Source: Planctomycetota bacterium
Lineage (GTDB): Bacteria > Planctomycetota > MHYJ01 > JACQRL01 > SBBU01
Direction of reading: 5' to 3'
Assembly: GCA_016206485.1 (NCBI GenBank)
Contig: JACQRL010000098.1
Location: 1 to 36,788, forward strand
Length of the DNA: 36,788 bases
The position numbers and the translations under genes are program-made. The notes beneath the pieces are model-generated. The model made no database searches, was not told the DNA's origin, and was given only the letters and a program-made list of their open reading frames with translations. Below, one piece after another: positions 2,852 to 31,918 of the stretch. Within the stretch, counting starts at the first letter, position 1, and each line of letters opens with the position of its first letter.

Positions 2852-2880
2852 GCAGTCTGCCTAGTCTCAAAGATTATTTG

Positions 2881-2920: not shown

Positions 2921-2934
2921 GATTGAGTTATATT

Positions 2935-3743: not shown

Positions 3744-3805
3744 TTTAATCTATGAAATCTGTGCTTATGTCAGTTCTAAAGTTATAATCTACTGGTTTTA
3801 AGTCT

Positions 3806-6945: not shown

Positions 6946-6963
6946 TGTCAAATATAGTTGACA
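6946..6963. promoter_or_regulatory. Palindrome TGTCA-N8-TGACA, candidate enhancer-binding-protein site (UAS)
   Basis: TGTCAAATATAGTTGACA is centred about 57 nt upstream of the GG of the -24 element at 7012. The same TGTCA-N8-TGACA pattern occurs at 22433..22450, upstream of the other sigma-54 promoter. Confidence 0.45.
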
Positions 6964-7010
6964 CTTACCGTAAATCTACCGTTTCGTCTATTTATACTGC
7001 TGATATGATA

Positions 7011-7026
7011 TGGCATGGCATTTGCA
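7011..7026 (+). promoter_or_regulatory. Sigma-54 (-24/-12) promoter candidate
   Basis: TGGCAT-GGCAT-TTGCA has GG and GC exactly 12 nt apart, matching TGGCAC-N5-TTGCW. It lies 40 nt upstream of the ATG at 7066 (RBS GAGGTGA). Confidence 0.65.
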
Positions 7027-12965: not shown

Positions 12966-13084
12966 GTGGATCGTGGATCGCAAATCGTAGATCTTAGAAC
13001 ATCAAACAGAACACAGTACACAGAAGGCAGAAAACAGGGGGCCCAATTCTGAACTTTGAACTGTGAACTCCGTGCTGTGTACTA
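12966..13084 (+). repeat. Heptanucleotide-periodic spacer element, copy B
   Basis: GTGGATC GTGGATC GCAAATC GTAGATC TTAGAAC ATCAAAC AGAACAC AGTACAC AGAAGGC AGAAAAC AGGGGGC CCAATTC TGAACTT TGAACTG TGAACTC ... 12987-13056 matches 11602-11671 at 65 of 70 positions by my count. Confidence 0.85.
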
Positions 13085-14036: not shown

Positions 14037-15836
14037 TTACCTCCTTTTCAATTCTTCATCAACGAATATATGTATTTCACTTGGTATTTGATCTATATTC
14101 TTTTCTATATTTTTGCCAGTATGATCTTGAAGAGAGAGTGTATATTTAAGCGATTCGTCCAGTCCATTAAAAATGTAATAACCGTCTTTTTGAATGAACG
14201 AATCGTGAACGAAAAAAGTTATTCCAATATCTTCGAGTTTGACTATCAAATTGAGTGTTGGGTAAAGAGGTTTCATTTCAATACGGTTGTTTAGTATTTT
14301 TGCTTTGAATTGTCCGCCTGCTTGTCTCATAATAGTGGAAGTATCGATAGTTAATATTTGCCCGGCACTGAAATCTTTAAGGGGCATGCTTAAAAGTGAG
14401 AATCCCGGCTTGTAAAGTCGCAACTCCGAGTCTTTTGGGTTAAATAAGAAGATTTTACCTGCAATTTGGGTACCTGCTACGATATTGAACTCTCTTAAAT
14501 TTATCAGTTGTTTTGTTACTGTGTTACCTAGCCAAATTTTGCTGTTTCCATAGGTATCATTCAATACTGCAATTCCGGCAACTTTTTTAGATCTTCTGAT
14601 TATTTCAGTGAGAGAACTATGATCCAAATTTGTTAATATTTGATTTGTAACAGGGATAGCAATAGAATGCCCGTCCTTTTTCGCAGGTTCGATTAAGTGA
14701 TGACTCATATTTGTGATTACTCTGGTGTATTCCCTGTCTTCTGTATTTGAAGTGATGGTAAGTTTCAATATGAGTGGTTCATCACAAGAAAAGGTTATTT
14801 TGTAAGTGTTTATATTTCCCTCTTTAATTATATTGAGTGGAATATCTGTTTTTCCACTTTCAATTCCCTCAACAGCGATCTTGACATCAGCCTGTCCTGA
14901 ATAAGGGGTGCCATTGTCATTAGTGAGATATAGATGAATCTCACATTTGCTGCTTAGATTTGTATCTGTTGACAGCAGTGTGGTTGTGTTATTACTGTCA
15001 GAATTGGAAGTAGATTCGTTAGTGGGCAGAAGATTGCTTAGCTGTTCCGTATCGTTGGCTGATGCTGTATATGAATTTTCTTTGGACTTATCAAGCAGAT
15101 GGGATGACAGTATAAAGGTTGCCAGCACCAGAATACAGAGAATCCCACAAAAAATTACAGGTATTTTGAGCTTACTGATTAGAAGTATTGGAGCTGCTTT
15201 GTTCAGTTGTATTAGCATATCGACGATGTCCGGATTAAATTGAACGTCGGATGGTACTGAATCCACTGTTTTTAAGAGTGTAAGCGGATCATAGAGAGGG
15301 AGTGTAAGTCCGAGTGTGACAAATCTCTCTTTTATTTTCTTTTTAGCGCCATTTATTTTTCTGGCAACAGAGCCCTCCGGGATACTGGTAATGTCTGCTG
15401 TTTCGGAATATGAGAAGTTCTGTACATAAATGAGATTTAGAATTATCTGCTCGTCTTTGGGAAGTTCATCAACAAATTCTTTTACTGTTTGCAAAGCAAC
15501 TTCTTTTTCCCTGTCTGGACCTACATTTGGAGATCGACTGATCTGTATTAGGCTTTTTTGATGGACTTTTTGATCTCTTACCCTAGAAAGTGATTTATTA
15601 ACGGCTATTTTGGCTAACCAGTGTTTTAGTGATTCTATTTTTATACCCTTATTAATTTGATTGACTGCTGATAGTAATACTTCCTGTGTTGCATCCTCTG
15701 CTTCCTCTCTATTTTGTAGGACCCTGTAGGAAATGCTATATATAAGGCCTGCGTAATCTGTTAATTGTCCTGCAATTTCTGATGTTTTTTGTGTGGTTAT
15801 CATACCTATATCAATCATGGTATCTAAGACTCCCAA
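14037..15836 (-). CDS. ECF-type sigma-70 family factor fused through one TM helix to a ~350-aa extracytoplasmic domain
   Basis: Sigma region 2 ('IYSISYRVLQNREEAEDATQEVLLSA') and region 4 ('LPKDEQIILNLIYVQNFSYSETADITSIPEGSVARKINGAKKKI') are both present. A TM helix 'IPVIFCGILCILVLATFILSS' lies at about aa 225-246, followed by an S/T/N-rich linker and a large C-terminal domain. The tracked start is a TTG; in-frame ATGs lie 6 and 11 codons downstream. Confidence 0.8.
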   Translation of the reverse strand: MGVLDTMIDIGMITTQKTSEIAGQLTDYAGLIYSISYRVLQNREEAEDATQEVLLSAVNQINKGIKIESLKHWLAKIAVNKSLSRVRDQKVHQKSLIQISRSPNVGPDREKEVALQTVKEFVDELPKDEQIILNLIYVQNFSYSETADITSIPEGSVARKINGAKKKIKERFVTLGLTLPLYDPLTLLKTVDSVPSDVQFNPDIVDMLIQLNKAAPILLISKLKIPVIFCGILCILVLATFILSSHLLDKSKENSYTASANDTEQLSNLLPTNESTSNSDSNNTTTLLSTDTNLSSKCEIHLYLTNDNGTPYSGQADVKIAVEGIESGKTDIPLNIIKEGNINTYKITFSCDEPLILKLTITSNTEDREYTRVITNMSHHLIEPAKKDGHSIAIPVTNQILTNLDHSSLTEIIRRSKKVAGIAVLNDTYGNSKIWLGNTVTKQLINLREFNIVAGTQIAGKIFLFNPKDSELRLYKPGFSLLSMPLKDFSAGQILTIDTSTIMRQAGGQFKAKILNNRIEMKPLYPTLNLIVKLEDIGITFFVHDSFIQKDGYYIFNGLDESLKYTLSLQDHTGKNIEKNIDQIPSEIHIFVDEELKRR

Positions 15837-19203: not shown

Positions 19204-20817
19204 ATGGGACGGAAGAAGTTTAATATTGCCAGATTGTTACTGTTTTGTGGAGGAATACTTGGGTTCATCTTTATCGGATATGAAGTTTTGGAGCGTTATT
19301 GGCTTATCGATTTGTTGGAGATGACTAGCATACACCGGCTCCATTTAATCAGAGGTATTGGCGCGTCGCTGGTTGCGGTTGCTTTTATAATTATTTATCT
19401 CAGGAGATACAGCCAGTTTATTCTTCCTATCCCTAGAGCCGGGGAAATTGTCCATTTCTCCGATATTCCGACAGAAAATGACAGACTGAAGCATCACGCA
19501 AAATGGTTTATAAGGATGAGATGGATAGCTTCCGGGACAGCATTACTATTAATTGCCATAACAGTATTTTTGGAAGTCTTGCCCGCGGAAACGTTAATCC
19601 CGCTTCTTTGCTGTGCAGCATTACTTTTGTTTGCTAACGTTATCTACTCACGCATTTCCAGGGGAGTAAACAACGCATATAGTTTTATAATGGTTCAGGT
19701 TATAGTTGATCTTGTGATACTAGCAGGATTTGTTGAATTTTCAGGAGGACTGGAAAACCCTATTTATTTCATGTATTTATTGCACGTGGTTCTCGCAGGT
19801 ATACTGTTGAGGCAAAGAGATGCTTTTATCATAACCTTTTTTGCATTTGTGCTTGTATGTGTTGTTTCATTTGGCCAGTTGGTTCATATTTTCCCTCATC
19901 ATACCATAGCGATTTTCCCTCATGCAGGGGACAACCATGCGTCTTATAATCTGCCGTTTGTTCTGGGTAACATTTCTGTGTTTTTTATTATGATGTTTAT
20001 GACGGTTTATTTTGTTACGTTGGTTGTTGACCGGCTTAGGAAATCCAATGATCTTCTTATGCAAAGTATAGCCAATGCTCTCAGTGAGGTGGAAAAAAGA
20101 AAAGAGGTTGAGGCGCAACTGGTTCATTCCAGTAAACTCTCTGCTATTGGCAGGTTAGCGGGACAGGTAACACATGAAATCAATAATCCTGTGGGAATAA
20201 TAACCGCGAGGGCGAAGATGCTTGTAAATGATGCAGAAAAAGCAGGGACGAATGAAAAACAATTGAGTGATCTGAGAACAATATTGCGACACGCTGAGCG
20301 GGTAAGCGCTATTGCGAAAGGTCTGCTTTTTTATTCCAGACCTGCTGTTAAAACTACAGAAGCTGTTGATATTAATTATTTGGTGAAATCTGTAATGACT
20401 TTAATTGACCAGGAAAGTATTAAAGAAAAAAGGACATTAATAAGAACATTTTTTTGTAAAGAGAAACTAATGGCTAGTGCGGATTTCAATGACTTACAGC
20501 AGGCATTGCTAAATATTGTAAATAACGCGTTGGAAGCTATACAGAAGAATGGAATGGTGATAATCAGAGTCTTCAAGGATAAGGAATCTACCATAGGTAT
20601 TTCTGTGGAAGATACAGGTGTCGGAATATCAGAGAAAAACAGGGAAAAGTTATTTGAGCCGTTTTTTACGACAAAACCCCCGGGAAAAGGGACCGGCTTG
20701 GGTCTTGCCATCTGTTATGGCATAATTAGAAGTTATCATGGGGACATTAATGTAGAAAGTAGTGAGGGAAAAGGATCGAAATTCACAATTCTTTTACCCG
20801 GGAATACCGCGTTATGA
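19204..20817 (+). CDS. Sensor histidine kinase with a polytopic membrane sensor domain (RegB-like GGxxNP motif)
   Basis: The N-terminal ~290 aa are mostly TM helices. It has the H-box '[11 protein letters not shown]' and an HATPase_c domain ('NNALEA', 'DTGVGI', 'GTGLGLAI'). 'GGLENPI' is encoded at nt 19744-19764. Confidence 0.9.
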
Positions 20818-22211
20818 AGTCAATTCGCCTGCTTATTGTTGATGATGAAGGGGACATGCTGGATGTCTGCAGGGATATGCTTACAGATCTGCCTGATTTG
20901 AAGATCCAGATAGAATCTAATCCGGTAAAGGCAGCTGAGCGTCTCAGATCTAAATCTTTTGATCTTCTTATCACTGATTTGAAAATGCCCGGATTGAGTG
21001 GTTTGGAGCTTGTAAGAACGATGAATGAGATTGATCCGACTTTGCTCACTATATTTATTACTGCCTATCCCACAGAGGAAACTGCTGTTGATAGTATTAA
21101 ACTTGGAGTAGTCGATTATCTGGTGAAACCTTTCTCTCCTGAGCAGTTAAAAACGACAGTGAAAAGGGCTATGAATCGTAAGCTGCTGATGAAGGAAAAT
21201 CTTTTTCTAACCAGGCAAATAGAAAAAAGCTACAGGCTTGATGAACTTGTCGGGCAGAGTGCAGTAATGCAAAAAATTTACGATATAATCCAACTTACAG
21301 CGCCCACAGATGCTGATGTTCTTGTAACAGGGGAAAGTGGGACTGGCAAGGAGATGGTTGCAAGAAGTATTCATAAGAAAAGTAAGAGAGCTGATAAAAG
21401 ATTTGTTCCTGTGGACTGCGGAGCAATACCGGAAACTTTGTTTGAAAGTGAGCTCTTCGGGCATGAAAAGGGCTCATATACTGGTGCAGTATCATCCCAG
21501 GTAGGTTTGCTGGAATTCGCGGATGGTGGGACTATATTTCTGGATGAGGTTTGCGAATTACCTGTGTCAGTTCAGTCAAAACTGCTCCGTGCGATTCAGG
21601 AAAGATCTTTCAGACCGGTAGGTGCTACGGAAGAAGTAAGATCTGATATAAGAGTGGTCGCAGCTACAAATCGAGATATCGAAAAGGAGGTCAAGGATAA
21701 ACATTTTCGCGAGGATTTGTATTATAGAATAAATGTTGTTCGTATAGATATTCCGCCGCTTAGGGAGAGAGAAAAAGATATCGAGTTGTTTGCAAAGTAT
21801 TTTCTGACAAGATACTCGCAGGAGATGAACAAAGGTGTTCGTGAGATAGACAGTAGGGCTATGGAGATATTCAATTACTATTTTTGGCCGGGGAATATCA
21901 GGGAGCTCCAAAACGTCATCAAACGCGCTATTATCCTTACAAGGAATAATATCATCGGCATAAATGATCTGCCGGATTCTATAGTAAATTATATAAAAGA
22001 AGGGGACTCAACAGCAGACTCGATTGTTAATTTTTTTCAGTTAAGGGAGCAGTATATGGCTAAATTTGAACAGGAGTACCTGCTTAGACTTCTTACACAT
22101 TGCGATGGAGATGTGACCATGGCATCGAAAAAGTTAAAATTGCCCAGAGGAACATTGTATAGATTACTTAATAAACATAATATTGTCCCGGATGATATCA
22201 GGAATCAATAA
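20814..22211 (+). CDS. Sigma-54-dependent response regulator (NtrC family: REC + AAA+ + Fis-type HTH)
   Basis: ATGA overlap with the kinase gene. It has a receiver Asp in '[10 protein letters not shown]', Walker A 'GESGTGKE', the sigma-54 contact loop 'GSYTGA' (a GAFTGA variant) and the C-terminal HTH '[16 protein letters not shown]'. Confidence 0.95.
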
Positions 22212-22278
22212 CTAACAAAAATTATTTAACAAAATTATGATAAGGATTGTGTGAGACCGCTGAAAGAAAATAGAAATT

Positions 22279-22320
22279 AGGAGTCAGGAATAAGTAGATG
22301 GAATATAGAATTTGGAATAT
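22279..22320 (+). repeat. Degenerate heptanucleotide tandem repeat
   Basis: AGGAGTC AGGAATA AGTAGAT GGAATAT AGAATTT GGAATAT. Confidence 0.6.
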
Positions 22321-22432
22321 GGGTGCGGAGCTGCGTATGGCGATTTCGCGACAGATCATCCAATAGTTTGTTAAAGATAGGATAACAAGTTTATAAAAAG
22401 TCATCTGGCTTTGTGTTGTATTTTTGTGACAG

Positions 22433-22450
22433 TGTCATGATCGCGTGACA
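22433..22450. promoter_or_regulatory. Palindrome TGTCA-N8-TGACA, candidate enhancer-binding-protein site (UAS)
   Basis: TGTCATGATCGCGTGACA, with an additional TGACA half-site at 22427-22431. It is centred about 86 nt upstream of the -24 GG at 22527 and has the same architecture as 6946..6963. Confidence 0.45.
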
Positions 22451-22525
22451 GATAAAAGTTTTTAATCTTAAGAGCAGAATAAACAGGGCCAATTCAATAG
22501 TTTTAAAGGGTTACAGTATATTGTC

Positions 22526-22541
22526 TGGCATCTAAATTGCC
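22526..22541 (+). promoter_or_regulatory. Sigma-54 (-24/-12) promoter
   Basis: CTGGCAT-CTAAA-TTGCC has GG and GC 12 nt apart. It lies 34 nt upstream of the ATG at 22575 (RBS AAAGGAGG) and directly downstream of a sigma-54 activator gene. Confidence 0.7.
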
Positions 22542-22574
22542 CATGACAGAATAGAATTTAAAAGGAGGTTACTA

Positions 22575-23963
22575 ATGGCAAAAGTATGGAAGACATTATA
22601 TAGTCTGCCAATTTTATGCGTAAGTGGTGTATTGTTCTTTTTTGTTTTAACAAGTAAGAATGCTGAGGCGATACCTGCATGGGCGCGCAAGTATAAAACA
22701 AGTTGCGCTACCTGTCATGAATCGTTTCCAAAGCTCAATGCAACCGGTGAGGCATTTCGCTTGAATGGATATAAGTTTAATGATGATGACCAGGTTGTTA
22801 AGGAAGAAAAGGTTATACTGGGGCAGGATGCATACAAGAAAATGTGGCCTGATTCTATATGGCCTGCGGATATTTCAAGTGTTCCGCCGATTTCTATTCG
22901 CTTGCTTCCTGATTTTAACATACCGATTGGGGGAAAGAGAGGTCGCGAATCTGCGACAGATTTTAATTTCCCTCACGAAGCGGCAATTTTGGCTGCAGGG
23001 ACGATCGGAGCTGATATGTCATATTTCTTTGAGTTGGAATTTGAGGTTGAGGATGGCGAGACGTTAACCGAATTTGAGGCTGCTTGGTGGCAGTGGGAGG
23101 ATTTGGTCGGTCCTGAAAATGTATTCAATTTACGGCTTGGCACTATTGGAATGCAGGAATTTGGTCCTTTTACCGCAAGAGATCATAACCGCTTGACCAA
23201 GAACAAGTTTCTTTTCAGTGATACAATGCTTCCCTCTATCTCAGGAAAGGATACGTCGAACTATAAGGTTGGTATGATGCAACCGGGTATTGAGTTCAAT
23301 GGTTTCGGCGACCGCTGGAGATATGCTACTGGTATTGTTCGTGGTGTCAGCGATGGTGAAAATAATTCAGATAAAGACTACTTTTTACAGCTTGCATACA
23401 AAATAGGCGGATTGGGTTTTGACGGTTCCGGCAAATCAGATAAAGGTGCTGCGGCAAGCTCGAAGGATTTCATCAGAGATGATTCAATTATAATCTCTGC
23501 GTTTGGTTATCAGGGACTTGAAACCCTCGAAGATTCCAAAGGTGAAGGTGAAAATAGACTCTGGAGGGCAGGTCTAGGAGCATCCTGGAAAAAAGAAGAC
23601 CTGAGAATTGGTGGCGGCGTTATCTGGGGATCAGACAGCGAACCATACGGTACAGTAACTGATGAAACTGTGGATAGTCTAAACTATTATGTTGATGCAG
23701 AATACTTTGTTTATCCATGGCTTGTTCCGCTCCTAAGGTATGAGTCAATAAGTTTTGACCTGCCTGAAGGAGTGACCGGTTTACAGAAAGACCAGGACCG
23801 CGCTCGAGTCATTGCGGCTGTCAGGATTTTGGCAAGGGCTAATGTTGCGATATTGCTGGAAGGGCGTTTCCACACAAAGGATGAAAGATATACAGAGAAA
23901 ACACCGGATCAGGACAAGAACCAGGATGATTTAATAGCGATAAGACTTGATATCGCATTTTAA
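22575..23963 (+). CDS. Outer-membrane beta-barrel protein with an N-terminal monoheme c-type cytochrome motif (Cyc2-like fused cytochrome-porin)
   Basis: Signal peptide ending 'NAEA'. A single CxxCH ('CATCH', nt 22704-22718) lies about 12 residues into the mature protein. About 400 aa of alternating amphipathic strands follow, ending in the terminal 'RLDIAF' (a C-terminal Phe is typical of OMPs). Confidence 0.85.
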   Translation: MAKVWKTLYSLPILCVSGVLFFFVLTSKNAEAIPAWARKYKTSCATCHESFPKLNATGEAFRLNGYKFNDDDQVVKEEKVILGQDAYKKMWPDSIWPADISSVPPISIRLLPDFNIPIGGKRGRESATDFNFPHEAAILAAGTIGADMSYFFELEFEVEDGETLTEFEAAWWQWEDLVGPENVFNLRLGTIGMQEFGPFTARDHNRLTKNKFLFSDTMLPSISGKDTSNYKVGMMQPGIEFNGFGDRWRYATGIVRGVSDGENNSDKDYFLQLAYKIGGLGFDGSGKSDKGAAASSKDFIRDDSIIISAFGYQGLETLEDSKGEGENRLWRAGLGASWKKEDLRIGGGVIWGSDSEPYGTVTDETVDSLNYYVDAEYFVYPWLVPLLRYESISFDLPEGVTGLQKDQDRARVIAAVRILARANVAILLEGRFHTKDERYTEKTPDQDKNQDDLIAIRLDIAF

Positions 23964-24024
23964 CGTTGTGTGGATATTGTATTAGTGGACTTCTCATCCA
24001 ACCCTCCTATTGGAGGTTATGGAA

Positions 24025-24059
24025 CCAAGAGGGATTAAGCATCCCTCTTGGTATTTTTT
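24025..24059 (+). terminator. Rho-independent terminator (intra-cluster)
   Basis: Perfect 10-bp stem CCAAGAGGGA/TCCCTCTTGG with loop TTAAGCA and tail TATTTTTT. Confidence 0.8.
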
Positions 24060-24097
24060 GTTGATGTGAATGAAATTGTCGGTTCGGGAGGTGTTAT

Positions 24098-25243
24098 ATG
24101 AGAGTTGGCATGTTTTTTTTGATATGTCTTGTATCTTTGAATTTCACACTGTTGGAGGATGGCAAACTGACAGGGATAGTGAAATCCGCCGAAAAAGGTC
24201 AGCAATTTGTTGTTTATGTAATCAGTTCAGCAGGCGCTGAAAAGAATTCCGGACATGAAGTGTCTTTTAAACCGGCTGGAAAAACCATTATCGAGATTAA
24301 TAATGGAAAGTTAACACCTGACATTTCGACATTTCCACGGGGAACAGAAGTTGAGTTCAAAAATAATACCAGTGTAAAACATACTTTGCATGTCGCTACT
24401 ATCGTGGACCACAATGATATTGATGTGGAAGGCAATAAAAGCCGCTCTCTCTCATTCAGACTTCACGGTATTTATAATATCAGATGTAAGCTGCATGCGG
24501 AAGAAACTACAGATTTTGTGGTGACTGCGACACTACATTCAGCGATCACAGATAGTGATGGCAAATTCACTATATCTGGACTCCCCTCAGGTACTTTTAA
24601 AGTTAAGATCTGGAGCAAAGACTTAAAGGTATCCCAGCTTAATTCAACTTATGAAGTGAAAATAAATGCAGGCAAAGAATCTCAGATGGAAATTGTTCCC
24701 CCTTCGCCAGACACTTCAGGTACAGTAGCAGGAAAGGTTAATTCCTCCTTTGCGAAGAAGTTCCCGTTTGTGGTATATATTGAGGACATAGGATCTAAAA
24801 CTCTTCCTGTTCCTGATGAAAATGCATTGGTAGACCAATATGCGAAGGTTTTCGTTCCCAGAGTTTTACCTGTGCAGGTTGGTACGGCGGTTGACTTCCT
24901 TAACAGTGATCCTTTTGAGCATAATGTGCTGTCACCTGATGAGGAAAAGTATGACCTTGGTAATTTTGGAAAGGGTGAAAGCCGGAGCTACGTATTCAAA
25001 AGAACAGGATTTTATACCCAGTTGTGTACCCTTCATCCGGAGATGATAGCTTATGTTGTTGTTGTCAAGACTCCTTTTTTCGCGGTAACTGATAACGATG
25101 GCAATTTTAAAATTGAAGGCGTCCCTGCCGGCAGTTGGAAGGTAAAAATATGGAATGAAAGACTAAAAAGCAAACAGCTTGCAAAAACATGGGATATAAC
25201 TGTTGAAACGGATAAAGAGTCCGGTCTTGTAATTGAACCGTAA
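24098..25243 (+). CDS. Secreted protein with two tandem modules, each a cupredoxin-like domain plus a CarboxypepD_reg-like domain
   Basis: Module 2 has type-1 Cu ligands 'FEHNV' ... 'CTLHPEM' (C-x2-H-x2-M, amicyanin-like spacing). Module 1 has 'VKHTL' ... 'CKLHAEE' (Cys and His kept, no Met). Each is followed by a 'TDSDGKFTISGLPSGTFKVKIW' / 'TDNDGNFKIEGVPAGSWKVKIW' domain. Confidence 0.85.
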   Translation: MRVGMFFLICLVSLNFTLLEDGKLTGIVKSAEKGQQFVVYVISSAGAEKNSGHEVSFKPAGKTIIEINNGKLTPDISTFPRGTEVEFKNNTSVKHTLHVATIVDHNDIDVEGNKSRSLSFRLHGIYNIRCKLHAEETTDFVVTATLHSAITDSDGKFTISGLPSGTFKVKIWSKDLKVSQLNSTYEVKINAGKESQMEIVPPSPDTSGTVAGKVNSSFAKKFPFVVYIEDIGSKTLPVPDENALVDQYAKVFVPRVLPVQVGTAVDFLNSDPFEHNVLSPDEEKYDLGNFGKGESRSYVFKRTGFYTQLCTLHPEMIAYVVVVKTPFFAVTDNDGNFKIEGVPAGSWKVKIWNERLKSKQLAKTWDITVETDKESGLVIEP

Positions 25244-25247
25244 TGAG

Positions 25248-25871
25248 ATGAATGAAATACAACCGGACAAAGGTGCAAGAAATATAGTTCGTGTGTTTTT
25301 AGGTGTGGTCTTCTTCTTGCTTATTTTTTATTCTGCTTTGGGATACCAGTCATTGACTTGGAGCCCGATGTTTTACGTGAAAAACGCAGGTTCTGAAAGA
25401 TCACGGATTAATTTTGAGGGAGAAGAAAACGCTGTCCCGATGAAATATCAATCTGTGGAAAGAGGAAAAAAACTATTTCTCCGTGAAGGCTGTTCAGTCT
25501 GTCACGGGCAGGATGGCAGGGGAGGTGTAGCTAATCCTAATTACATCAATAAAACTACTCCGCGGTTAGATGAAATGGCTGAAAGACTTTTTCTCTATGA
25601 ACATGAGGATGTTGACTTAGTTTTAAAGGTTTTTGAATCAGGAAAATCTCTGGATGAGGTTGAGGATCTTGATATCCCGCGCGCAAACGCGGTGATTGCA
25701 CAGTACAAAAGTATTGTAACTTTGATACAGAGTGGAAATCCGGCTGGGAAAGAAGACCAGACAGGGCACTCCCCTTTTGATATGCCCGCCTTCAAGGGGA
25801 CTCTCAACCAGAGAGATGTTAATGATGTGATCGCTTACCTTTTGAGCATTTACAGGTGGGAGGGCAAATAA
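25248..25871 (+). CDS. Membrane-anchored monoheme class-I cytochrome c
   Basis: N-terminal TM helix 'IVRVFLGVVFFLLIFYSALGY', heme motif 'CSVCH' and a distal Met candidate in 'FDMPAF'. The start is either the ATG at 25248 or the tracked TTG at 25233. Confidence 0.85.
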   Translation: MNEIQPDKGARNIVRVFLGVVFFLLIFYSALGYQSLTWSPMFYVKNAGSERSRINFEGEENAVPMKYQSVERGKKLFLREGCSVCHGQDGRGGVANPNYINKTTPRLDEMAERLFLYEHEDVDLVLKVFESGKSLDEVEDLDIPRANAVIAQYKSIVTLIQSGNPAGKEDQTGHSPFDMPAFKGTLNQRDVNDVIAYLLSIYRWEGK

Positions 25872-25887
25872 TTTTAGTGGAGGCATA

Positions 25888-26775
25888 ATGGGAATTCATC
25901 CTTTTACAATAGTTCTTTTTGTTTTACTGTCGCTTGTCGGGGTTTTTCAAGGGATGCAAACACGTAATCCCATCTACATAGTTGTAGGTTTAGGTTTGGG
26001 ATTACTATTACTGTTGTCAGTACGCATAGCAAAACAGTGGCAGAAAGTAATGGTGCTCAGACTCGGAAAATTCAGTTCTTTGCAGGGACCGGGCGCATTC
26101 GGGGTTATTCCGTTTTTGGATACGATCCCGTCATTTGTCGATACGAGAATCATTACAACTCCGTTCACAGCAGAAAAAACCCTTACTAAAGACAGCGTTC
26201 CGGTTGATGTTGATGCAGTCCTTTTCTGGCGTGTTCTCGATCCGAAAAAGGCGGTGTTGGAGGTTGAGGACTATAAGAGCGCGATCTCATGGGCATCCCA
26301 AACAGCCTTGCGGGATGTCATTGGTGAAACCGACCTCTCTGAAATGCTTATAGGCCGGCGACAGATAGACTCGATATTGTGTAAATCAATTGATGAACGT
26401 ACGGAAGCGTGGGGTATCAAAGCCCTGTCTGTTGAGTTGCGAGATGTGAAAATTCCGACTGAGTTACAAAATGCGATGTCCATGCAGGCGCAGGCTGAGA
26501 GGGAACGACAGGCAAGGGTTATCTTGGCGGAATCTGAGAGACAAGTTGCCTTTAAATTTTATGAGTCTGCAAAGGCATATGAGAATAGCCCAGTAGCTCT
26601 GCATTTGAGGGCGATGAATATTTTATTGGAAGGAATGAGACAAAGTTCCACTATTATTGTTGTCCCTTCTACGGCTGTTGAAACCATGGGTTTGGGTGTA
26701 GTAGGCGGGATCACTTCACTTGCAAAAGAGTTCCAGGGTCCAAAGGAAAAGAAGGAGCAGACGAACTCACAGTGA
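25888..26775 (+). CDS. SPFH/band-7 (stomatin/prohibitin-like) membrane protein
   Basis: Two N-terminal hydrophobic helices followed by an SPFH core ('TKDSVPVDVDAVLFWRV', 'IKALSVELRDVKIP', coiled 'AQAERERQARVILAESE'). RBS GGAGG upstream. Confidence 0.9.
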   Translation: MGIHPFTIVLFVLLSLVGVFQGMQTRNPIYIVVGLGLGLLLLLSVRIAKQWQKVMVLRLGKFSSLQGPGAFGVIPFLDTIPSFVDTRIITTPFTAEKTLTKDSVPVDVDAVLFWRVLDPKKAVLEVEDYKSAISWASQTALRDVIGETDLSEMLIGRRQIDSILCKSIDERTEAWGIKALSVELRDVKIPTELQNAMSMQAQAERERQARVILAESERQVAFKFYESAKAYENSPVALHLRAMNILLEGMRQSSTIIVVPSTAVETMGLGVVGGITSLAKEFQGPKEKKEQTNSQ

Positions 26776-27293
26776 ACAGTGGAGTAATAGTTTTATCGAT
26801 AGGTTTTCTGACCTTTGGAGCGGCAATTATATATTATGCAGGAAGTAAACAGGATGAACTTGATTTCGCTGTTCAACCTGTGGAATACAATCATTCAAAG
26901 CACGTTGCTCTCGGGATAGATTGCAGTTCATGTCATACAGGGGCTACTGACGGGACTCATGCAGGTATTCCGTCCACATCAACATGCGCTTTGTGTCACA
27001 AAATTGACCGTGATTTTCCTTCTACTCCGCCTCAGCTCGCAAGATATATAAAGGGAGGAGAGGAAATTCCATGGATACAGCTGCATAAAGCGCCAAGGCA
27101 CATTTATTTTTCGCATCAGCGCCATGTGAAGCTCGGAAAACTGGATTGCGCTGTCTGTCATGGCGATGTGAAAACGATGGAGAAGCCTTTTGGAAAAAGT
27201 TATTTTCCTAGCGGCCTTACAGGTATGAATAAATGCGTTGCTTGCCATCTTAAAGAAAAAGTCACAACAGATTGTTTGAGTTGTCACAGATGA
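26772..27293 (+). CDS. Membrane-anchored pentaheme cytochrome c (ActA/QrcA-like)
   Basis: GTG start overlapping the previous stop (GTGA). It has an N-terminal TM helix and five CxxCH motifs (CSSCH, CALCH, CAVCH, CVACH, CLSCH) in 173 aa. Confidence 0.9.
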   Translation: MNSGVIVLSIGFLTFGAAIIYYAGSKQDELDFAVQPVEYNHSKHVALGIDCSSCHTGATDGTHAGIPSTSTCALCHKIDRDFPSTPPQLARYIKGGEEIPWIQLHKAPRHIYFSHQRHVKLGKLDCAVCHGDVKTMEKPFGKSYFPSGLTGMNKCVACHLKEKVTTDCLSCHR

Positions 27294-29254
27294 TCACAAG
27301 ACGTACATTTTTAAAGTTAGGAATTGGCGGCGGTTCAGGTATTGCTCTAATGAATGTATCTAAACTTGTTCCCGGAGGCATACAAACACTTGATATGATA
27401 GATGAACATACGATTCATCGCGACCTTCCGGAGCAATTATGTCTTTCAGTATGTAGCTCATGCAGTACCACCTGCAAGATTTTACTTCGTAATGTGGGAG
27501 GAAATATTGTTGGGGTCCGCCCCTTTAAAGATAAACCATGCGCAAGGGCATATACAACCCCTCAGGAGCTCTACCACCCTGACAGGGTGAAAGTTCCGTT
27601 GAAGCGTAGCGGTGGAAGAGGCGGTGGCATGTGGAATCAAATTGACAAAAATGGCGCAATAGCTGAGCTTGCGAACATTCTCCGAACATCTGGGGCAAAA
27701 ACTGTCTTTATTCTACGCGAGGATTCAGCCCTTTCATTTGGCCTTTTAAAGGCTGTTGGAGCTGCGGCAGGCTCGCCATACATTTTTACATATGATGTAC
27801 CTCTTGAACATGGTCCTGATGATGCGCTTGAACAATTAACAGGGTGGAGTTCGTGGAAAACAGATTTATTGAATGCTGATGGAGTTGTTTCATTTGGCTG
27901 GAACTGGCTGCAGAATTTTACGGATCTTGCAGGCGCGCAGAAGGCCTTTTCAAAATTTCGTGAAAAAGATTCTACGATGATTTATATTGGTCCAAGGCTA
28001 AATGTAACTGCTATGAAATCCCGCAAATGGATTGCATGTAAGCCCGGGTTCGAATCGCTGGTCGCGCTTGCTGTTTCATCAGTAATTTTGCGGGATGGCA
28101 AATATGATAAGTTAGCATGTGACAAGTCAGAAGGTTTTACTGACTTTGCAGCAAAGCTGCAAAATTTTGATCTGCAATGGTGTGAAAAAATATCCGGTGT
28201 GTCACCGAAGCAGGTGAAAAAGTTAGCAGATCTACTGGCAGATGCTCGGCCGATCTGTATATGCGACAGAGGTCGTCTTGTTGATCAGCAATCTGTAGTC
28301 ATGCTTAACGCGCTTCTTGGAAATATCGGGAGAGCAGGTGGTTTTGTGCAACTCCCGGATGTTACGCTTCCTTTTAAGAAGGAACCAAAAAAGGGGTTGT
28401 TCGCCAGTGACGTCCCGGATATTTTAAATAAGAAAGAGATTGAAACGGTTATTTTTGTCGGCGTGAATCCGCTGTTTACAGGACCTGATCCTTTGAAGTG
28501 GAGGGCCTCATTGAGCAACGCGAAAAATGTTGTAAGTATTACCTCTTTGATGAACGAGACGACCGGCTACGCTGATCTTGTGATCCCTCTTGCTTTGCCT
28601 GCTGAGAGAAAGGACATTTATTTTGAGATACAGGATAATAATGAAATTAAAACTTTAGTAGTTGAACCGGCAGTAAAACCGCAGCCTGAGATTTTATCAC
28701 CTGCGGAAATTACCTTCGAAATCTCTAATAAACTTGATGCTGAGGATTTTCCATGGAAGAAGCTGGAAGATGTTGTTGGTTCTCTGGTCGTCCGAAATCC
28801 TGATAAATTGGCATTGCGATTTAGCAGCGAGTGGAAATCTCCTGAATTTTCCAACGGGGAATTTCATCTTTTACTGGAACTTCCCGGGACATTTTCTCAT
28901 TTAGAAGGAGCTCATCTTCCATATTTATTGACGACTGTTGGTCCGCATTTGCGTAAGTGGTGGAGTACTTGGGTGGAAATGAATCCTTCTACAGCAGAAC
29001 GATTGGAACTACATAATAATGATACAGTGTTGGTTGAAAATATATCTGGTTCAATACAGGCGAAGGTTCGTATTTTTGAAGGTATTTCCCCTGATGCTGT
29101 TTGCATTCCGCTCGGTATGGGACACTCTATAGGTCATTTCGCGCAGAAAGAAGGAGGGAATCCATCAGAACTTATTGGATATATAAAGGATGAAAAATGC
29201 GGTGTCTCACAGTGGAATCTTCAAAAAGTTAATTTAAGGAAGGTTGCTGTATGA
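27290..29254 (+). CDS. Tat-exported molybdopterin-oxidoreductase-family subunit (QrcB/ActB1/PsrA-like)
   Basis: ATGA overlap with the upstream gene. It has the twin-arginine signal 'TRRTFLKLG' and an N-terminal Fe4S4-domain Cys pattern CSSC-STTC-(about 21 aa)-C. A MopB core is visible ('IGPRLNVTAMKSRKWIACKPG'), as is the C-terminal beta-barrel domain ('VEMNPSTAERLEL..DTVLVEN'). Confidence 0.9.
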   Translation: MITRRTFLKLGIGGGSGIALMNVSKLVPGGIQTLDMIDEHTIHRDLPEQLCLSVCSSCSTTCKILLRNVGGNIVGVRPFKDKPCARAYTTPQELYHPDRVKVPLKRSGGRGGGMWNQIDKNGAIAELANILRTSGAKTVFILREDSALSFGLLKAVGAAAGSPYIFTYDVPLEHGPDDALEQLTGWSSWKTDLLNADGVVSFGWNWLQNFTDLAGAQKAFSKFREKDSTMIYIGPRLNVTAMKSRKWIACKPGFESLVALAVSSVILRDGKYDKLACDKSEGFTDFAAKLQNFDLQWCEKISGVSPKQVKKLADLLADARPICICDRGRLVDQQSVVMLNALLGNIGRAGGFVQLPDVTLPFKKEPKKGLFASDVPDILNKKEIETVIFVGVNPLFTGPDPLKWRASLSNAKNVVSITSLMNETTGYADLVIPLALPAERKDIYFEIQDNNEIKTLVVEPAVKPQPEILSPAEITFEISNKLDAEDFPWKKLEDVVGSLVVRNPDKLALRFSSEWKSPEFSNGEFHLLLELPGTFSHLEGAHLPYLLTTVGPHLRKWWSTWVEMNPSTAERLELHNNDTVLVENISGSIQAKVRIFEGISPDAVCIPLGMGHSIGHFAQKEGGNPSELIGYIKDEKCGVSQWNLQKVNLRKVAV

Positions 29255-29931
29255 CACGCTTGGGAATGGTAATAGATTTAGATAAATGTTCGGCATGCCA
29301 GACTTGCGCTGTTGCCTGCAACACTGAGAACAATGCGCCTCCCGGTACTCCGCAGGAGGCAGAAGAGTCACGTCTTATGAGATGGCTTCAGTTTTTGCCT
29401 CATTTTGAAGGCGAATATCCGCACGTCTCCGGACAGCTCACTCCTATGATGTGTCAACAGTGTGAGAGACCTCCATGTACATATGTTTGTCCGGTTTCGG
29501 CTACCTATCCTACACCGGATGGAATCGTGGCGCAGATCTACTGGCGCTGTATCGGATGCCGATATTGTGTTAATTCATGCCCTTATACAATGAAGTGGTT
29601 CAACTGGTGGAAGCCGCAGTGGCCCGGAGAGCTGAAGAATGGGACAAATCCTGACGTTGAATTGAGAGACAAAGGAGTCACTGAAAAATGCACCTTTTGT
29701 CATACGAGGCTCCAACACGCAAAAGAAAAAGCTAAGGTCGAAGGCAGGGGAATTAGAACCGGGGAATATCTTCCGGCTTGTGCGGAGGCTTGTCCCACAA
29801 ATGCGATTGTTTTCGGAGATCTTGATGATCCTGAAAGCGAGGTCGCGCAACTTGCAAGGGATCCGAGGGCATATCGATATCTGGAAGAGCTTGGGACGAA
29901 ACCAAAGGTAATTTACCTGAAATCAAGATGA
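29251..29931 (+). CDS. 4Fe-4S ferredoxin-type electron-transfer subunit (PsrB/NrfC/QrcC/ActB2-like)
   Basis: ATGA overlap with the upstream gene. Four Cys clusters are present: 'CSACQTCAVAC', 'CQQCERPPCTYVCP', 'CIGCRYCVNSCP' and 'CTFC...CAEACP'. Confidence 0.93.
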   Translation: MTRLGMVIDLDKCSACQTCAVACNTENNAPPGTPQEAEESRLMRWLQFLPHFEGEYPHVSGQLTPMMCQQCERPPCTYVCPVSATYPTPDGIVAQIYWRCIGCRYCVNSCPYTMKWFNWWKPQWPGELKNGTNPDVELRDKGVTEKCTFCHTRLQHAKEKAKVEGRGIRTGEYLPACAEACPTNAIVFGDLDDPESEVAQLARDPRAYRYLEELGTKPKVIYLKSR

Positions 29932-31259
29932 GAGAAAATATAGAACAAAGTCTTCTGAGTTCTGTTTCCCGGAAGCCGGGACCGATTTACTTGGGTGTTT
30001 GCATTTTTCTCGGTCTGATATTATTAGGTTCTATTGCTGCATGGATCTGGCAGATTGTGTATGGGCTTGGTGTAACCGGGATGAATACCCCGGTTTTCTG
30101 GGGGCTTTATCTGGTTAATTTTGTTTTTTTTATAGGGATCTCTCACGCAGGTACGCTTATTTCATCGGTTCTTAGGATCACCGATACAAAGTGGAGAAGA
30201 CCTTTTACAAGGCTGGCAGAGGCGATTACGGTATTCAGTCTTCCATTCGGTGCCATGTGCGTTATTGTTGATCTCGGAAGACCTGACAGACTTTTAAACG
30301 TAATGTATTTCCCGCACTTTAGCTCTGCTATTCTCTGGGATGTCGTGTGCATCTCCACATATTTGATCACTTCAATTCTCTACTTTTATCTGGCCTTAGT
30401 TCCGGACATAGCTATATGCAGAGATGTTCTCAAAAATGTTTCACCCTGGAGAAGAAAACTTTACAGTGCGCTTTCATTGGGATGGAGCGGGACACAAAAG
30501 CAATGGAAGGTACTTAACAGGATCATGACAGGCATGTCAATATTCCTTTTTGCGCTTGTCGTTTCTGTACATACTAACGTTTCATTTGTCTTTGGTATGA
30601 CAACCAAACCGGGCTGGTCAAGCACAATTATAAGCCCGTTTTTCGTGCTCGGAGCTATTTACTGCGGTGTGGCAGCGATGATATTCTTCATGATTATTTT
30701 CAGAAAAATATTTCACCTCGAAATGTTTATAACGCAGAAGCACTTTAATTCTGCGGCAAAGTTTCTTCTTGCGCTTTGCTGCTTCTGGCTGTATGCGATG
30801 ATTATTGAGCATTTATTTGGGTTTTATCACGGAGAAGAAAGTGAGTATCACCTGTTTATGGATAAAATGTTCGGCCACTACGCCATCTCTTTCTGGGTCA
30901 TGTTTGCGTGTTGCTTCCCTATTCCTTTTGTTGTACTTGCCGTGCCTCGGTTCAGGACGATTACAAATTTATTTATTATTTGTATAGTGGTGAACATCGG
31001 TATGTGGATGGAACGTTTTACTATTATCGTTCCAAGCGGAACACATCCTCTTTTGGCATGGGGAACAGGCAGTTATTCTCCAAGCTGGGTAGAATGGTCT
31101 ATTACTGCCGGATGGATTTCGGGGTTTGCGCTGTTTATTATGATATTTGTTCGTTTATTTCCCATGGTGACTATTTGGGAGATAAAAGAGGAAATAGAGG
31201 AAACTATGCATAAAAAAGATACTGTTACTGCAAAAGAAGGAGTAGGCATACTGGAATAA
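29928..31259 (+). CDS. NrfD/PsrC-family integral membrane quinone-interacting subunit (QrcD/ActC-like size)
   Basis: ATGA overlap with the upstream gene. 443 aa with about 10 hydrophobic helices, and NrfD-type motifs near the N-terminus ('PVFWGLYLVNFVFFIGISHAGTLIS'). Confidence 0.9.
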   Translation: MRENIEQSLLSSVSRKPGPIYLGVCIFLGLILLGSIAAWIWQIVYGLGVTGMNTPVFWGLYLVNFVFFIGISHAGTLISSVLRITDTKWRRPFTRLAEAITVFSLPFGAMCVIVDLGRPDRLLNVMYFPHFSSAILWDVVCISTYLITSILYFYLALVPDIAICRDVLKNVSPWRRKLYSALSLGWSGTQKQWKVLNRIMTGMSIFLFALVVSVHTNVSFVFGMTTKPGWSSTIISPFFVLGAIYCGVAAMIFFMIIFRKIFHLEMFITQKHFNSAAKFLLALCCFWLYAMIIEHLFGFYHGEESEYHLFMDKMFGHYAISFWVMFACCFPIPFVVLAVPRFRTITNLFIICIVVNIGMWMERFTIIVPSGTHPLLAWGTGSYSPSWVEWSITAGWISGFALFIMIFVRLFPMVTIWEIKEEIEETMHKKDTVTAKEGVGILE

Positions 31260-31918
31260 TGAGACTAATATATTTGTCTTGGCTTGCTTTCGTTGCTGGC
31301 TGCGCATGTCCGTTTTCTGTTGAACATGCTGCCGAATCCAAAGCTCGTTCAAATAATGCTGATGAAGTTTCTATGAGTGAAACTGATCCATCAAAGAAGC
31401 AACAAAAATTGGATCCGCTTACGCATGGTCAAAAAATACCGGATGCGAGTCTTGTAAATCAGAGTGGAAAGAATATCAGACTGTCTGATTACAGAGGAAA
31501 CGTCCTCATATTAACGTTTATATATACTCGATGTAATATACAAACGATGTGCCCGTTGGTAACGTCGAAGCTTGCGGGTGTCCAGAATAAAATCGCTAAG
31601 AATAATGTAAACTCTGTGCGGTTTCTTGTAGTAAGTTTTGACTCTATGTACGACAAGCCTGATAAACTCAAAGAATTTGCACAGCGGTATAACATTAACC
31701 TGGCGGTTTTTGAATTTGCCGGCGGTGAGCCTGAAACGGTCGGGAATCTTGCCCGCTCGTTCAATATCTACTATCGCAATGACTGCCCCGGAGTTTTCAC
31801 GCATAATATAATTGTTTCAATTGTTGATAAAAAAGGTGTTTTGCGCGATGATTTTTTTGGGACGGAGTGGGATGATGAAGAAATGGTCTCAGTTATAAAA
31901 CAATTAGCTGTTGAATAA
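31259..31918 (+). CDS. SCO1/SenC-family thioredoxin-fold copper chaperone, lipoprotein
   Basis: TAATG overlap with the upstream gene. It has the lipobox 'FVAGC', 'LILTFIYTRCNIQTMCP' (Cys pair) and the downstream conserved His in 'VFTHNIIVSIVD'. Confidence 0.85.
   Translation: MRLIYLSWLAFVAGCACPFSVEHAAESKARSNNADEVSMSETDPSKKQQKLDPLTHGQKIPDASLVNQSGKNIRLSDYRGNVLILTFIYTRCNIQTMCPLVTSKLAGVQNKIAKNNVNSVRFLVVSFDSMYDKPDKLKEFAQRYNINLAVFEFAGGEPETVGNLARSFNIYYRNDCPGVFTHNIIVSIVDKKGVLRDDFFGTEWDDEEMVSVIKQLAVE

Follow-up and report, generated by a model that had tools for sequence, protein, structure and literature searches.

The DNA analysed here (called the window) is the whole of contig JACQRL010000098.1 of assembly GCA_016206485.1, a stretch of 36,788 nucleotides from a Planctomycetota bacterium. 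Its central part, positions 19204-31918, carries genes for a sensor kinase and a response regulator followed by nine structural genes, which may together form a regulated electron conduit between a Cyc2-family cytochrome-porin in the outer membrane and the quinone pool. All eleven open reading frames (ORFs) were confirmed on the + strand (Table 1), their products being assigned from Pfam and NCBIfam family scans together with simple motif counts. From 26772 onward each start overlaps the stop of the preceding gene, which in the case of the molybdopterin-like gene requires initiation at the ATG at 27290 and not at the TTG at 27272; the start of the regulator gene (20814) likewise overlaps the stop codon of the kinase gene. 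A preliminary description of this DNA had listed nine co-directional genes behind a kinase/regulator pair and the overlaps from 26772 on. Every one of these genes was recovered, with the coordinates and product proposed, and the overlaps hold given the ATG at 27290.

Table 1. Genes and sequence features of the locus, with window coordinates and the evidence for each assignment
Feature	Position	Strand	Basis or detail
Sensor histidine kinase	19204..20817	+	Pfam HisKA, HATPase_c; N-terminal domain with multiple transmembrane segments, like RegB/PrrB
NtrC-type sigma-54-dependent response regulator	20814..22211	+	Sigma54_activat 235.6 bits, Response_reg, HTH_8
Candidate enhancer site	22425..22453	unstranded	Palindrome TGTGACAGTGTCA, then GCGTGACAGAT; read from sequence
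Putative sigma-54 -24/-12 promoter TGGCATctaaaTTGC	22526..22540	+	Pattern scan
Predicted Cyc2-family fused monoheme cytochrome-porin, 462 residues	22575..23963	+	Motifs and AlphaFold2 model; no family match
Intrinsic-terminator-like hairpin with T-run	24024..24061	+	Folding energy
Secreted tandem cupredoxin protein, 381 residues	24098..25243	+	Pfam Cupredoxin_1, Copper-bind, two CarboxypepD_reg
Membrane-anchored monoheme cytochrome c	25233..25871	+	Pfam Cytochrom_C; one transmembrane segment, one CSVCH
SPFH/Band-7 membrane protein	25888..26775	+	Band_7 121.6 bits
Membrane-anchored pentaheme cytochrome c, ActA/QrcA-like	26772..27293	+	One transmembrane segment, five CXXCH
Tat-exported molybdopterin-like subunit B1	27290..29254	+	TRRTFLK twin-arginine translocation (Tat) motif; molybdopterin domains
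Four-cluster Fe-S subunit B2, like C-terminal part of ActB/QrcC	29251..29931	+	16 Cys in four cluster motifs
NrfD-family quinone-site subunit, ActC type	29928..31259	+	NrfD 111 bits; about 10 transmembrane segments
Sco-like thioredoxin-fold protein	31259..31918	+	SCO1/SenC 64.1 bits, cut-off 22.8

The first structural gene encodes a barrel protein that was compared with the features by which Keffer et al. (2021; PMC8406198) recognise Cyc2: a signal peptide, one CXXCH, the motif AXPXFAR[Q/K][T/Y] just upstream of it and PXL four residues downstream, a 16-strand porin and a length of at least 365 residues. A hydrophobic segment (residues 7-25) followed by the junction NAEA/IP, judged by eye, corresponds to the signal peptide. 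The single CXXCH, C44ATCH48, is invariant in 37 homologues. It is preceded by AIPAWARKY and KTS, the former departing from the published motif by a conservative F-to-W change, and followed by ESF and PKL, with a Pro that is invariant in the homologues. Trp in place of Phe is common to the closest relatives of the window protein, its subclade, and a strict Phe-based regular expression for the AXPXFAR motif would miss the window protein itself. The consensus of the 37 homologues is AIPAFARKYxTSCxTCHEAFPRLN; all of them end in a C-terminal Phe, as does the barrel protein. An AlphaFold2 model built on the homologue alignment has 16 strands between residues 106 and 461 of the 462 (predicted local distance difference test score, pLDDT, 73; predicted template modelling score, pTM, 0.75), and the top folds returned for it by Foldseek are the 16-strand porins OmpU, PorB and OmpF, at E values of about 1e-12. 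By all the sequence and fold criteria tested, the barrel protein is a predicted Cyc2-family member, as the preliminary description had surmised on seeing a barrel with one N-terminal CXXCH; the structure prediction that it had called for gave the 16 strands, with CATCH in the N-terminal part and a heme segment of low confidence.

Several members of this family have been assayed. Cyc2PV-1 was assayed as an Fe(II) oxidase (PMC8406198), as were Acidithiobacillus ferrooxidans Cyc2 and Leptospirillum Cyt572 according to the passages of PMC8406198 and PMC13647500 that cite them. When produced in E. coli, a "Cluster 3-type" Cyc2 from the Thermodesulfovibrionia metagenome-assembled genome (MAG) "Ca. 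Mariimomonas ferrooxydans" was reported to bind heme and to speed up the oxidation of Fe(II) (2026, PMC13647500). The closest reference genome to Ca. Mariimomonas ferrooxydans, JAZFSN01 (93% average nucleotide identity), is the source of L016, one of the related loci compared with the window below. The homologue in L016 is 40-41% identical to the window barrel protein and is followed by a cupredoxin and a Rieske/cytochrome b complex. This gene is likely an orthologue of the assayed Cyc2, and only by way of L016 and PMC13647500 would the barrel protein be placed in Cyc2 Cluster 3.

The cupredoxin protein is made of two tandem units, each consisting of a cupredoxin and a transthyretin-like (CarboxypepD_reg) beta-sandwich. 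The two cupredoxin modules, noted from the outset, were confirmed by Pfam; the two CarboxypepD_reg domains came in addition. Unit 2 has a full type-1 Cu loop, CTLHPEM (residues 310-316); unit 1 reads CKLHAEE (residues 130-136), with the axial Met changed to Glu, and from these loops the units may hold copper sites of different potential. In most other loci this unit of about 200 residues is single, the window protein representing a tandem duplication; L004 also has a double-unit protein. The type-1 Cu loop, C-x2-H-[PAL]-E-M, is conserved in 82 of the 85 partner cupredoxins, and the window protein gives weak PDB matches to amicyanin and plastocyanin. In the 4.5-kb contig of L004 (positions 117-4452), the double-unit cupredoxin gene stands between two Cyc2-like paralogues that share 58% and 61% identity with the barrel protein of the window.

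Homologues of the monoheme cytochrome c occupy the matching position in L003, L010, L086, L087 and L090. Its identification as ActE was rejected, as it shows no similarity to the solved ActE chains; it could be a functional analogue. In the Sco-like protein, the sequence RCNIQTMCP (residues 91-99) provides a C-x5-C-P motif in place of the canonical CxxxCP, together with a His in an HN motif, and the C-x5-C-P spacing is kept in the orthologues of L003 and L010. The protein is presumed, from its family, to be a copper chaperone for the cupredoxin. The SCO chaperone of the preliminary description scores above the SCO1/SenC cut-off but carries an atypical motif. That description had also counted the SPFH and SCO proteins among the parts of the system. 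Both genes are present; among complete loci of the type found in the window, however, the SPFH gene occurs only in the window and in L003 and L090, and the Sco-like gene is absent from L065. Since they are missing from some complete loci (SPFH from L010 and L065, Sco from L065), the two are better regarded as accessory.

The four genes that precede the Sco-like gene were compared with the Qrc complex and with alternative complex III (ACIII). NCBIfam Qrc models rank first for subunits A, B and C, all below the equivalog cut-offs (94 bits for a cut-off of 180 with QrcA, 228.6 for 440 with QrcB, 264.8 for 400 with QrcC). With QrcD also below its cut-off (37.4 for 570), strict Qrc membership was rejected for all four subunits. 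The Qrc-like layout is nonetheless present, with A-B-C-D gene order and a Tat-exported B subunit lacking a Mo ligand. In phmmer searches of solved structures, the NrfD subunit matched ActC of ACIII over its full length (6lod_C, 1.4e-70; also 8k9e_C, 6f0k_C and 6btm_C, ranging to 2.3e-64), the Fe-S subunit matched the C-terminal part of ActB (6f0k_B, 7.8e-59; 6lod_B, 5.8e-54) and the pentaheme cytochrome matched ActA (8k9e_A, 1.3e-20; also 6btm_A and 6lod_A, ranging to 8e-15). Neither an ActD-like gene nor a second NrfD gene (ActF) was found at the locus, and ActB, instead of being fused in a single polypeptide, is split into the B1 and B2 genes. These four distal genes are therefore better described as encoding a putative minimal ACIII-like complex with split ActB and a Qrc-like subunit layout. 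The module had been labelled Qrc/ACIII-like, which stands as far as the group and the layout are concerned; by sequence it is closer to ACIII than to Qrc.

Among solved structures, the best match of subunit B1 is Thermus PsrA (7.3e-22), no solved ActB chain appears among its phmmer matches at E <= 0.001, and in NCBIfam PhsA (201.2 bits) follows QrcB, both below their cut-offs. The Mo-ligand residue of PsrA, Cys173, aligns with Glu179 of B1, in a column that reads E/E/N/R/G/R/H in the clade. A full HMMER scan covering 1.84 billion proteins supplied the 69 nearest representatives of B1 relatives; in these, the column holds S, G, R, N, E or other residues, and just one has a Cys close by. The motif of the FS0 [4Fe-4S] cluster, CX2CX3CX21C, is conserved in the B1 clade. 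The clade is rare, amounting to about a dozen 50%-identity clusters scoring above 290 bits and four close homologues in a 5.8-billion-protein index. Because the Mo ligand is absent, B1 would not be a polysulfide, thiosulfate or tetrathionate reductase, and a catalytic Psr/Phs/Ttr enzyme was rejected on account of the unconserved ligand column. By its sequence, B1 is a predicted non-catalytic, cofactor-less scaffold like QrcB and ActB1. An intact Mo ligand in a catalytic reductase was one of the findings by which the preliminary description would have been overturned, and B1 has no such ligand.

The candidate promoter, TGGCATctaaaTTGC, lies 35 nt upstream of the ATG of the barrel gene (22575). 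The window has four -24/-12 sites for 1.8 expected, so that TGGCATctaaaTTGC is not significant by count alone. At homologous loci, a match of at least 9/10 is found 5' of the Cyc2-like gene in 13 of 82, compared with 1.8% of random windows. The -24/-12 element is preceded, at a distance of about 100 bp, by the palindrome TGTGACAGTGTCA and then GCGTGACAGAT, with the repeat GATTTCGCGACAGAT / GATCGCGTGACAGAT; the region of the palindrome is a candidate enhancer site, as read from the letters of the sequence. The promoter call is supported by its position, by the adjacent activator gene, by the upstream palindrome and by the enrichment at homologous loci, and sigma-54 control, suggested in the preliminary description, is plausible from the site and from this enrichment. 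A second -24/-12 match, TGGCATGGCATTTGC at 7011-7025, lies 40 nt upstream of a 620-residue ORF (7066-8928) whose product carries a CarboxypepD_reg domain at its N-terminus and weakly matches the SusC/RagA N-terminal family. TGTCA and TGACA half-sites at about 6947-6964 resemble those 5' of the cyc2-like gene, and one activator might control both genes.

Between the barrel and cupredoxin genes, a hairpin (24024-24061) combines a 12-bp stem with ATTTTTTGTT; the minimum free energy of the 86-nt stretch is -33.6 kcal/mol (z = -4.56). Of 59 homologous loci, only about 3 carry a strong equivalent, which makes the hairpin a local feature and not a conserved one. Given this terminator-like hairpin after the barrel gene, the nine genes may not be one simple transcript; the barrel gene may yield more transcript than the others, which would then be reached by read-through. 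The picture of a single regulon drawn initially thus keeps the regulator pair and the promoter upstream, but the barrel gene is set apart from the other eight by the hairpin.

The kinase scores 94.8 bits with the NCBIfam ActS/PrrB/RegB model (residues 100-520; cut-off 350), the only listed kinase match whose best stretch reaches into the membrane domain. Residues 181-187 read GGLENPI, and GGIENP[LF] is conserved in the kinases of L005 and L007-L010, all from Planctomycetota; the motif is missing from the other 34 kinases beside related loci, of which only the kinase cores aligned to the window kinase. We take its counterpart in RegB, GGXXNPF, to be a quinone-sensing site. This hints that the kinase may sense the redox state of the quinone pool, which would fit either direction of electron flow. 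The best NCBIfam match of the regulator is AtoC, NtrC ranking third, all below cut-offs; despite the RegB-like membrane domain of the kinase, its partner is of NtrC type and not of RegA type.

When one genome per GTDB species was scanned, the barrel protein proved to have at least 545 relatives, of which 80 loci were retrieved; in a census of neighbours, 84 related loci were searched with the window proteins and representative neighbours. The related loci span more than ten phyla, including Planctomycetota, Desulfobacterota, Acidobacteriota, Gemmatimonadota, Nitrospirota, Nitrospinota, Bacteroidota, Ignavibacteriota, Calditrichota and Omnitrophota, and come nearly all from MAGs, with one isolate, Desulfoluna limicola ASN36. 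A cupredoxin gene adjoins the Cyc2-like gene in 79 of the 84, and an NtrC-type regulator is encoded within 8 kb in 40. Where at least 6 kb of downstream sequence was available (52 loci), the downstream module was a Rieske/cytochrome b set in 16, a CuA-NapH fusion in 13 and an ACIII-like set in 3 (L003, L010 and L065). The first class comprises a Rieske protein, a split cytochrome b and a large multiheme cytochrome, as in L005. In the second (class B), a CuA domain is fused to a NapH/MauN-type membrane ferredoxin and accompanied by a CuA-cytochrome c protein.

The full nine-gene order recurs in L003 (Planctomycetes bacterium RBG_16_59_8) and L090, with 48-68% protein identity, in Planctomycetota contigs of 58-60% guanine-plus-cytosine (GC) content (58% in L090) as against 41% in the window. 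L010, a Planctomycetota groundwater MAG, has the window order minus the SPFH gene. The Calditrichota locus L065 is reduced to kinase, regulator, Cyc2, cupredoxin and the four complex genes. The search for conserved synteny that had been recommended thus found the gene order kept in L003 and L090, kept except for SPFH in L010 and reduced to this core in L065. The link first proposed between the outer membrane, the copper and heme carriers and the quinone pool is strengthened, since the Cyc2-cupredoxin pair is joined to three different quinone-linked modules in other phyla.

Two further observations concern these relatives. On the chromosome of Desulfoluna limicola ASN36 (L020, 9935-20415), a 643-residue CuA-NapH/MauN fusion is encoded after the Cyc2-like and cupredoxin genes. 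There, as in several other loci, further genes encode a permease resembling FtsX/MacB, an ATP-binding cassette (ABC) ATPase and an FtrD-like protein, and two NosL genes are present. Class B occurs as well in L006-L009, L011-L014, L018, L019, L027, L046, L074, L080 and L084, and no description of this combination of a CuA-NapH fusion with Cyc2-like and cupredoxin genes was found in the literature. In L005 (9327-9881) and L010 (9432-9989), the regulator gene is separated from the Cyc2-like gene by an ORF of about 185 residues and of no known family, which has no equivalent in the window; the best -24/-12 site of L010 is upstream of this ORF.

A reciprocal search, in which metagenome contigs were scanned starting from the B1 subunit, gave L090 together with L087 and L089. 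In the latter two, genes for a cupredoxin like that of the window (61-62% identity), a monoheme cytochrome c and an ACIII-like set (54-69%) lie on either side of a periplasmic nitrite oxidoreductase (NXR) and not of Cyc2. The NXR region (L087, 1439-8756; L089, 3446-9300) encodes an alpha subunit that matches Kuenenia NxrA (7b04_B) at 6e-291, a type II dimethyl sulfoxide (DMSO)-reductase beta subunit, an EB_dh heme b gamma subunit and a NarJ-like chaperone. In L089, no Cyc2-like gene is present in the 3 kb upstream of the cupredoxin gene. The nxr clusters of Kuenenia, Nitrospira and Nitrospina hold cupredoxin-like proteins and c-cytochromes, proposed to connect NXR to a terminal oxidase and to a reverse-electron-flow membrane module, NXR being the oxidiser of a high-potential donor in need of such reverse flow (Lücker et al., PMC3578206). 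Side by side, the Cyc2 and NXR loci make the cupredoxin/cytochrome c/ACIII-like unit look like a general adaptor between the quinone pool and the enzymes of high-potential couples (Fe2+/Fe3+, nitrite/nitrate). No earlier description of an operon of NXR with an ACIII-like complex was found in the literature.

The neighbours of the locus either have unrelated housekeeping functions or are encoded on the opposite strand: transketolase-like, HEAT-repeat and extracytoplasmic function (ECF) sigma genes upstream, and TPR, LpoB and Ser/Thr-kinase genes downstream. The ECF gene (14037-15836, - strand) encodes a 599-residue protein in which an ECF sigma-70 domain occupies about the first 170 residues and the long remainder has no recognised family; its neighbour, a 317-residue ORF at 13082-14035, has no family match. 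PriA (3806-5980) reaches at best 41-44% identity in a 5.8-billion-sequence index, its few named matches being spread over several phyla, and the Cyc2-like protein of the window has no entry in the contig index; the lineage appears poorly sampled.

All components of the locus are of known kinds, and it can be compared with several described systems. In A. ferrooxidans (rus operon, cyc2, cyc1, coxBACD and rus, together with the petI bc1 operon), the genes for Cyc2, a cupredoxin and a c-type cytochrome lie side by side, as in the window; electrons could likewise branch at the cupredoxin, and the proposed uphill flow passes through a complex at the level of quinone. The window differs from this arrangement in having no aa3 oxidase and in having a quinone module inside the cluster that is ACIII-like instead of bc1. 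Its cupredoxin is of amicyanin type, fused to beta-sandwiches and duplicated, and is not a rusticyanin; control is of the sigma-54/NtrC type and the organism is a non-acidophile. Closer in its proposed role is the model for Gallionellaceae and Zetaproteobacteria (PMC4643136), in which Fe(II)-derived electrons reach quinone through Cyc2 and the products of actAB1B2CDEF. Kato et al. described there, in an ACIII-like cluster of neutrophilic iron oxidisers, a split ActB1/ActB2 with a Cys motif of the form CX2CX3CXnC. The window shares the split, this motif in B1 and the Fe-S nature of B2; in contrast, it lacks ActD, ActE and ActF, has a B1 nearer PsrA than any solved ActB, and includes a cupredoxin. 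Operon linkage of cyc2 and act genes is not reported for these bacteria in the literature found, whereas the window has one cluster.

The Qrc complex of Desulfovibrio (QrcABCD) has the same four-subunit layout and is a precedent for flow from periplasm to quinone. In the window, the membrane subunit is of ActC type instead, the proposed donors are the cupredoxin and the monoheme cytochrome c, and no hydrogenase or cytochrome c3 gene is present in the window or the flanks examined. The ACIIIs of Rhodothermus, Flavobacterium, Roseiflexus and Chloroflexus (6f0k, 6btm, 6lod, 8k9e) are clear relatives in ActC, in the Fe-S half of ActB and in ActA, and those of Chloroflexi also partner a cupredoxin, auracyanin. 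Unlike them, the window complex has a split ActB and lacks ActD, ActE and ActF, would run in reverse, and is encoded with an outer-membrane cytochrome-porin. The nxr clusters (PMC3578206) share with the window an oxidiser of a high-potential donor, cupredoxin-like and c-type carriers and a reverse-flow membrane module; in the window, Cyc2 replaces NXR, while classical nxr clusters have a bd-like protein and not an ACIII-like complex. The Ca. Mariimomonas Cyc2 (PMC13647500) would fall in the same broad Cyc2 clade as the window protein, with a downstream module, judging from L016, of Rieske/cytochrome b type. The preliminary description knew of no system of this composition. No description of a linked cluster of the kind found here turned up in the searchable literature, but Cyc2 with a split-ActB ACIII (PMC4643136) and nxr cupredoxins with a reverse-flow module (PMC3578206) were already known.

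From the conserved linkage, and from the interchangeable front ends and quinone modules, we infer one electron path from the outer membrane to quinone. Our reading, held with moderate confidence, is that the locus encodes a regulated outer-membrane-to-quinone conduit, running inward from Fe(II) with an uphill step driven by the proton-motive force. The Cyc2-family protein (heme c and 16-strand porin) would exchange electrons with small dissolved redox species, most likely Fe2+; a dissolved species is the only partner expected for a single heme inside a narrow porin. The tandem amicyanin-type cupredoxin and the monoheme cytochrome c would carry the electrons across the periplasm, and the four-subunit ACIII/Qrc-type complex would pass them to (mena)quinone, probably uphill and at the cost of proton-motive force. 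From the cupredoxin or cytochrome c, a further share of the electrons could go to terminal reductases or oxidases whose genes lie elsewhere. The Sco-like protein would load copper and the SPFH protein may scaffold the membrane complex; expression would be controlled by the RegB-like kinase, the NtrC-type activator and the -24/-12 promoter, possibly in response to the redox state of the quinone pool. We likewise infer, as parts of this reading, the physical electron path, its inward direction, Fe(II) as donor and the coupling to proton-motive force.

Type-1 Cu and CuA centres are high-potential centres, and in known enzymes CuA is the site of electron entry. Inward flow is favoured because the Cyc2 proteins tested so far were assayed as Fe(II) oxidases, because of these high-potential Cu/CuA centres, and because the donors of both front ends need reverse transport. 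An ACIII-like complex working uphill already features in published models of iron oxidisers (PMC4643136). A number of points weigh on the other side. To our knowledge, every ACIII characterised biochemically takes electrons from quinol and hands them to cytochrome c, to an oxidase or to auracyanin, a cupredoxin, and outward flow is also the normal mode of Rieske/cytochrome b and NapH modules. Nothing in the sequence decides between inward and outward flow. Family scans of the 36.8-kb window found no terminal oxidase, carbon-fixation or iron-related genes, and most relatives of the locus belong to uncultured bacteria, or to the sulfate reducer Desulfoluna limicola, without reported iron oxidation. 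The hairpin interrupts the gene series after the barrel gene. In the barrel model the heme segment (residues 28-103) has a pLDDT below 50, a low confidence that is expected because the model contains no heme. The orthology of the L016 gene with the assayed Ca. Mariimomonas Cyc2 is putative, and Cluster 3 is the one of the three Cyc2 clusters whose function is regarded as least certain (PMC8406198). Finally, NXR can work as a nitrate reductase (PMC6050957), and given this reversibility the NXR parallel fits outward flow equally well.

These points lend themselves to an alternative that we consider unlikely but serious, namely that the ACIII-like complex oxidises quinol and that the Cyc2-like protein is an outer-membrane reductase of a soluble oxidant, such as chelated Fe(III) or Mn(III). 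The ActC, ActB2 and ActA subunits are close to solved quinol-oxidising ACIIIs; the Chloroflexus complex is reported, in a work cited by PMC4643136, as a menaquinol:auracyanin (cupredoxin) oxidoreductase; and all three downstream modules, Rieske/cytochrome b, NapH-type and ACIII-type, are normally quinol dehydrogenases. The NXR of L087 and L089 would be able to act as a nitrate reductase (PMC6050957), and the window has no terminal oxidase. Outward flow is difficult to reconcile, however, with the assays of Cyc2PV-1, the Ca. Mariimomonas Cyc2 and the two other members cited, all assayed as Fe(II) oxidases. Moreover, Fe(III), being mostly solid at neutral pH, would be kept from the lone heme within a 16-strand pore, and the CuA domains of the class B module, in known enzymes, take electrons from soluble carriers instead of donating them.

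An improbable account would make the locus a copper- or metal-homeostasis or envelope redox-stress system, for example for periplasmic Cu(I) oxidation or detoxification of reactive species, with electrons going into or coming from the quinone pool and no energy conserved. It would explain a copper protein beside a Sco-like chaperone, the dedicated two-component system, and the NosL, ABC/FtsX-type and FtrD-like proteins of class B loci, but a five-heme/Fe-S/NrfD or full Rieske/cytochrome b complex is a heavy investment for detoxification. In addition, the type-1 Cu loop is kept as an electron-transfer site in 82 of the 85 partner proteins, and the same module is joined to NXR, a catabolic enzyme. 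That the four distal genes encode a conventional periplasmic Psr/Phs/Ttr molybdoenzyme reductase lying next to Cyc2 by coincidence is hardly tenable: despite the PsrA and PhsA matches of B1 and its intact FS0 motif, Cys173 of PsrA is replaced in an unconserved column, the membrane subunit matches ActC at 1e-70 with no PsrC among its matches, the genes overlap at their starts and stops, and their association with carriers and with Cyc2 or NXR is kept in other loci.

The inward conduit proposed here touches on a hypothesis already in print. That Cyc2-derived electrons reach quinone through an ACIII-like complex has been published as such, the route from Cyc2 to quinone and NAD(P)+ has remained hypothetical for more than a decade, and reverse ACIII or bc1 is drawn in models; for the Cyc2-to-quinone step, no genetic or biochemical link was found in the literature. 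Here a Cyc2-family gene, its likely carriers and an ACIII-like complex lie in one regulated cluster, conserved across very different GC contents. In the searchable literature we found no description of a Cyc2 gene and an ACIII-like complex in one regulated cluster with overlapping frames, such absence being no proof, nor of an amicyanin-type cupredoxin that accompanies this Cyc2 clade almost everywhere as its dedicated partner, nor of the swapping of three quinone modules and two front ends. The census amounts to a natural swap experiment, in which one Cyc2-cupredoxin pair goes with three unrelated quinone modules and the cupredoxin/ACIII-like set goes also with NXR. It suggests that cyc2 matches in "non-iron" phyla are part of an organised pathway and not stray porins. 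The four-subunit complex and its specific cupredoxin are concrete biochemical targets, and Desulfoluna limicola ASN36 is a culturable carrier of the sister variant.

More tentatively, and with some doubt on our part, the loci can be seen as variants of a modular, multi-phylum uptake system for high-potential electron donors, of which no description was found in the searchable literature and in which a Cyc2 or NXR front end is combined with a dedicated cupredoxin and one of three quinone modules, frequently under sigma-54/NtrC control, and in which the ACIII-like complex is run in reverse. If so, this complex would be a cupredoxin/cytochrome c:quinone oxidoreductase driven by proton-motive force, and the clusters would be the first operon-level evidence for the route by which Cyc2-derived electrons reach quinone. 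Fe(II) or electron uptake would then extend to Planctomycetota, Desulfobacterota (including a cultured sulfate reducer), Acidobacteriota, Gemmatimonadota, Bacteroidota and others.

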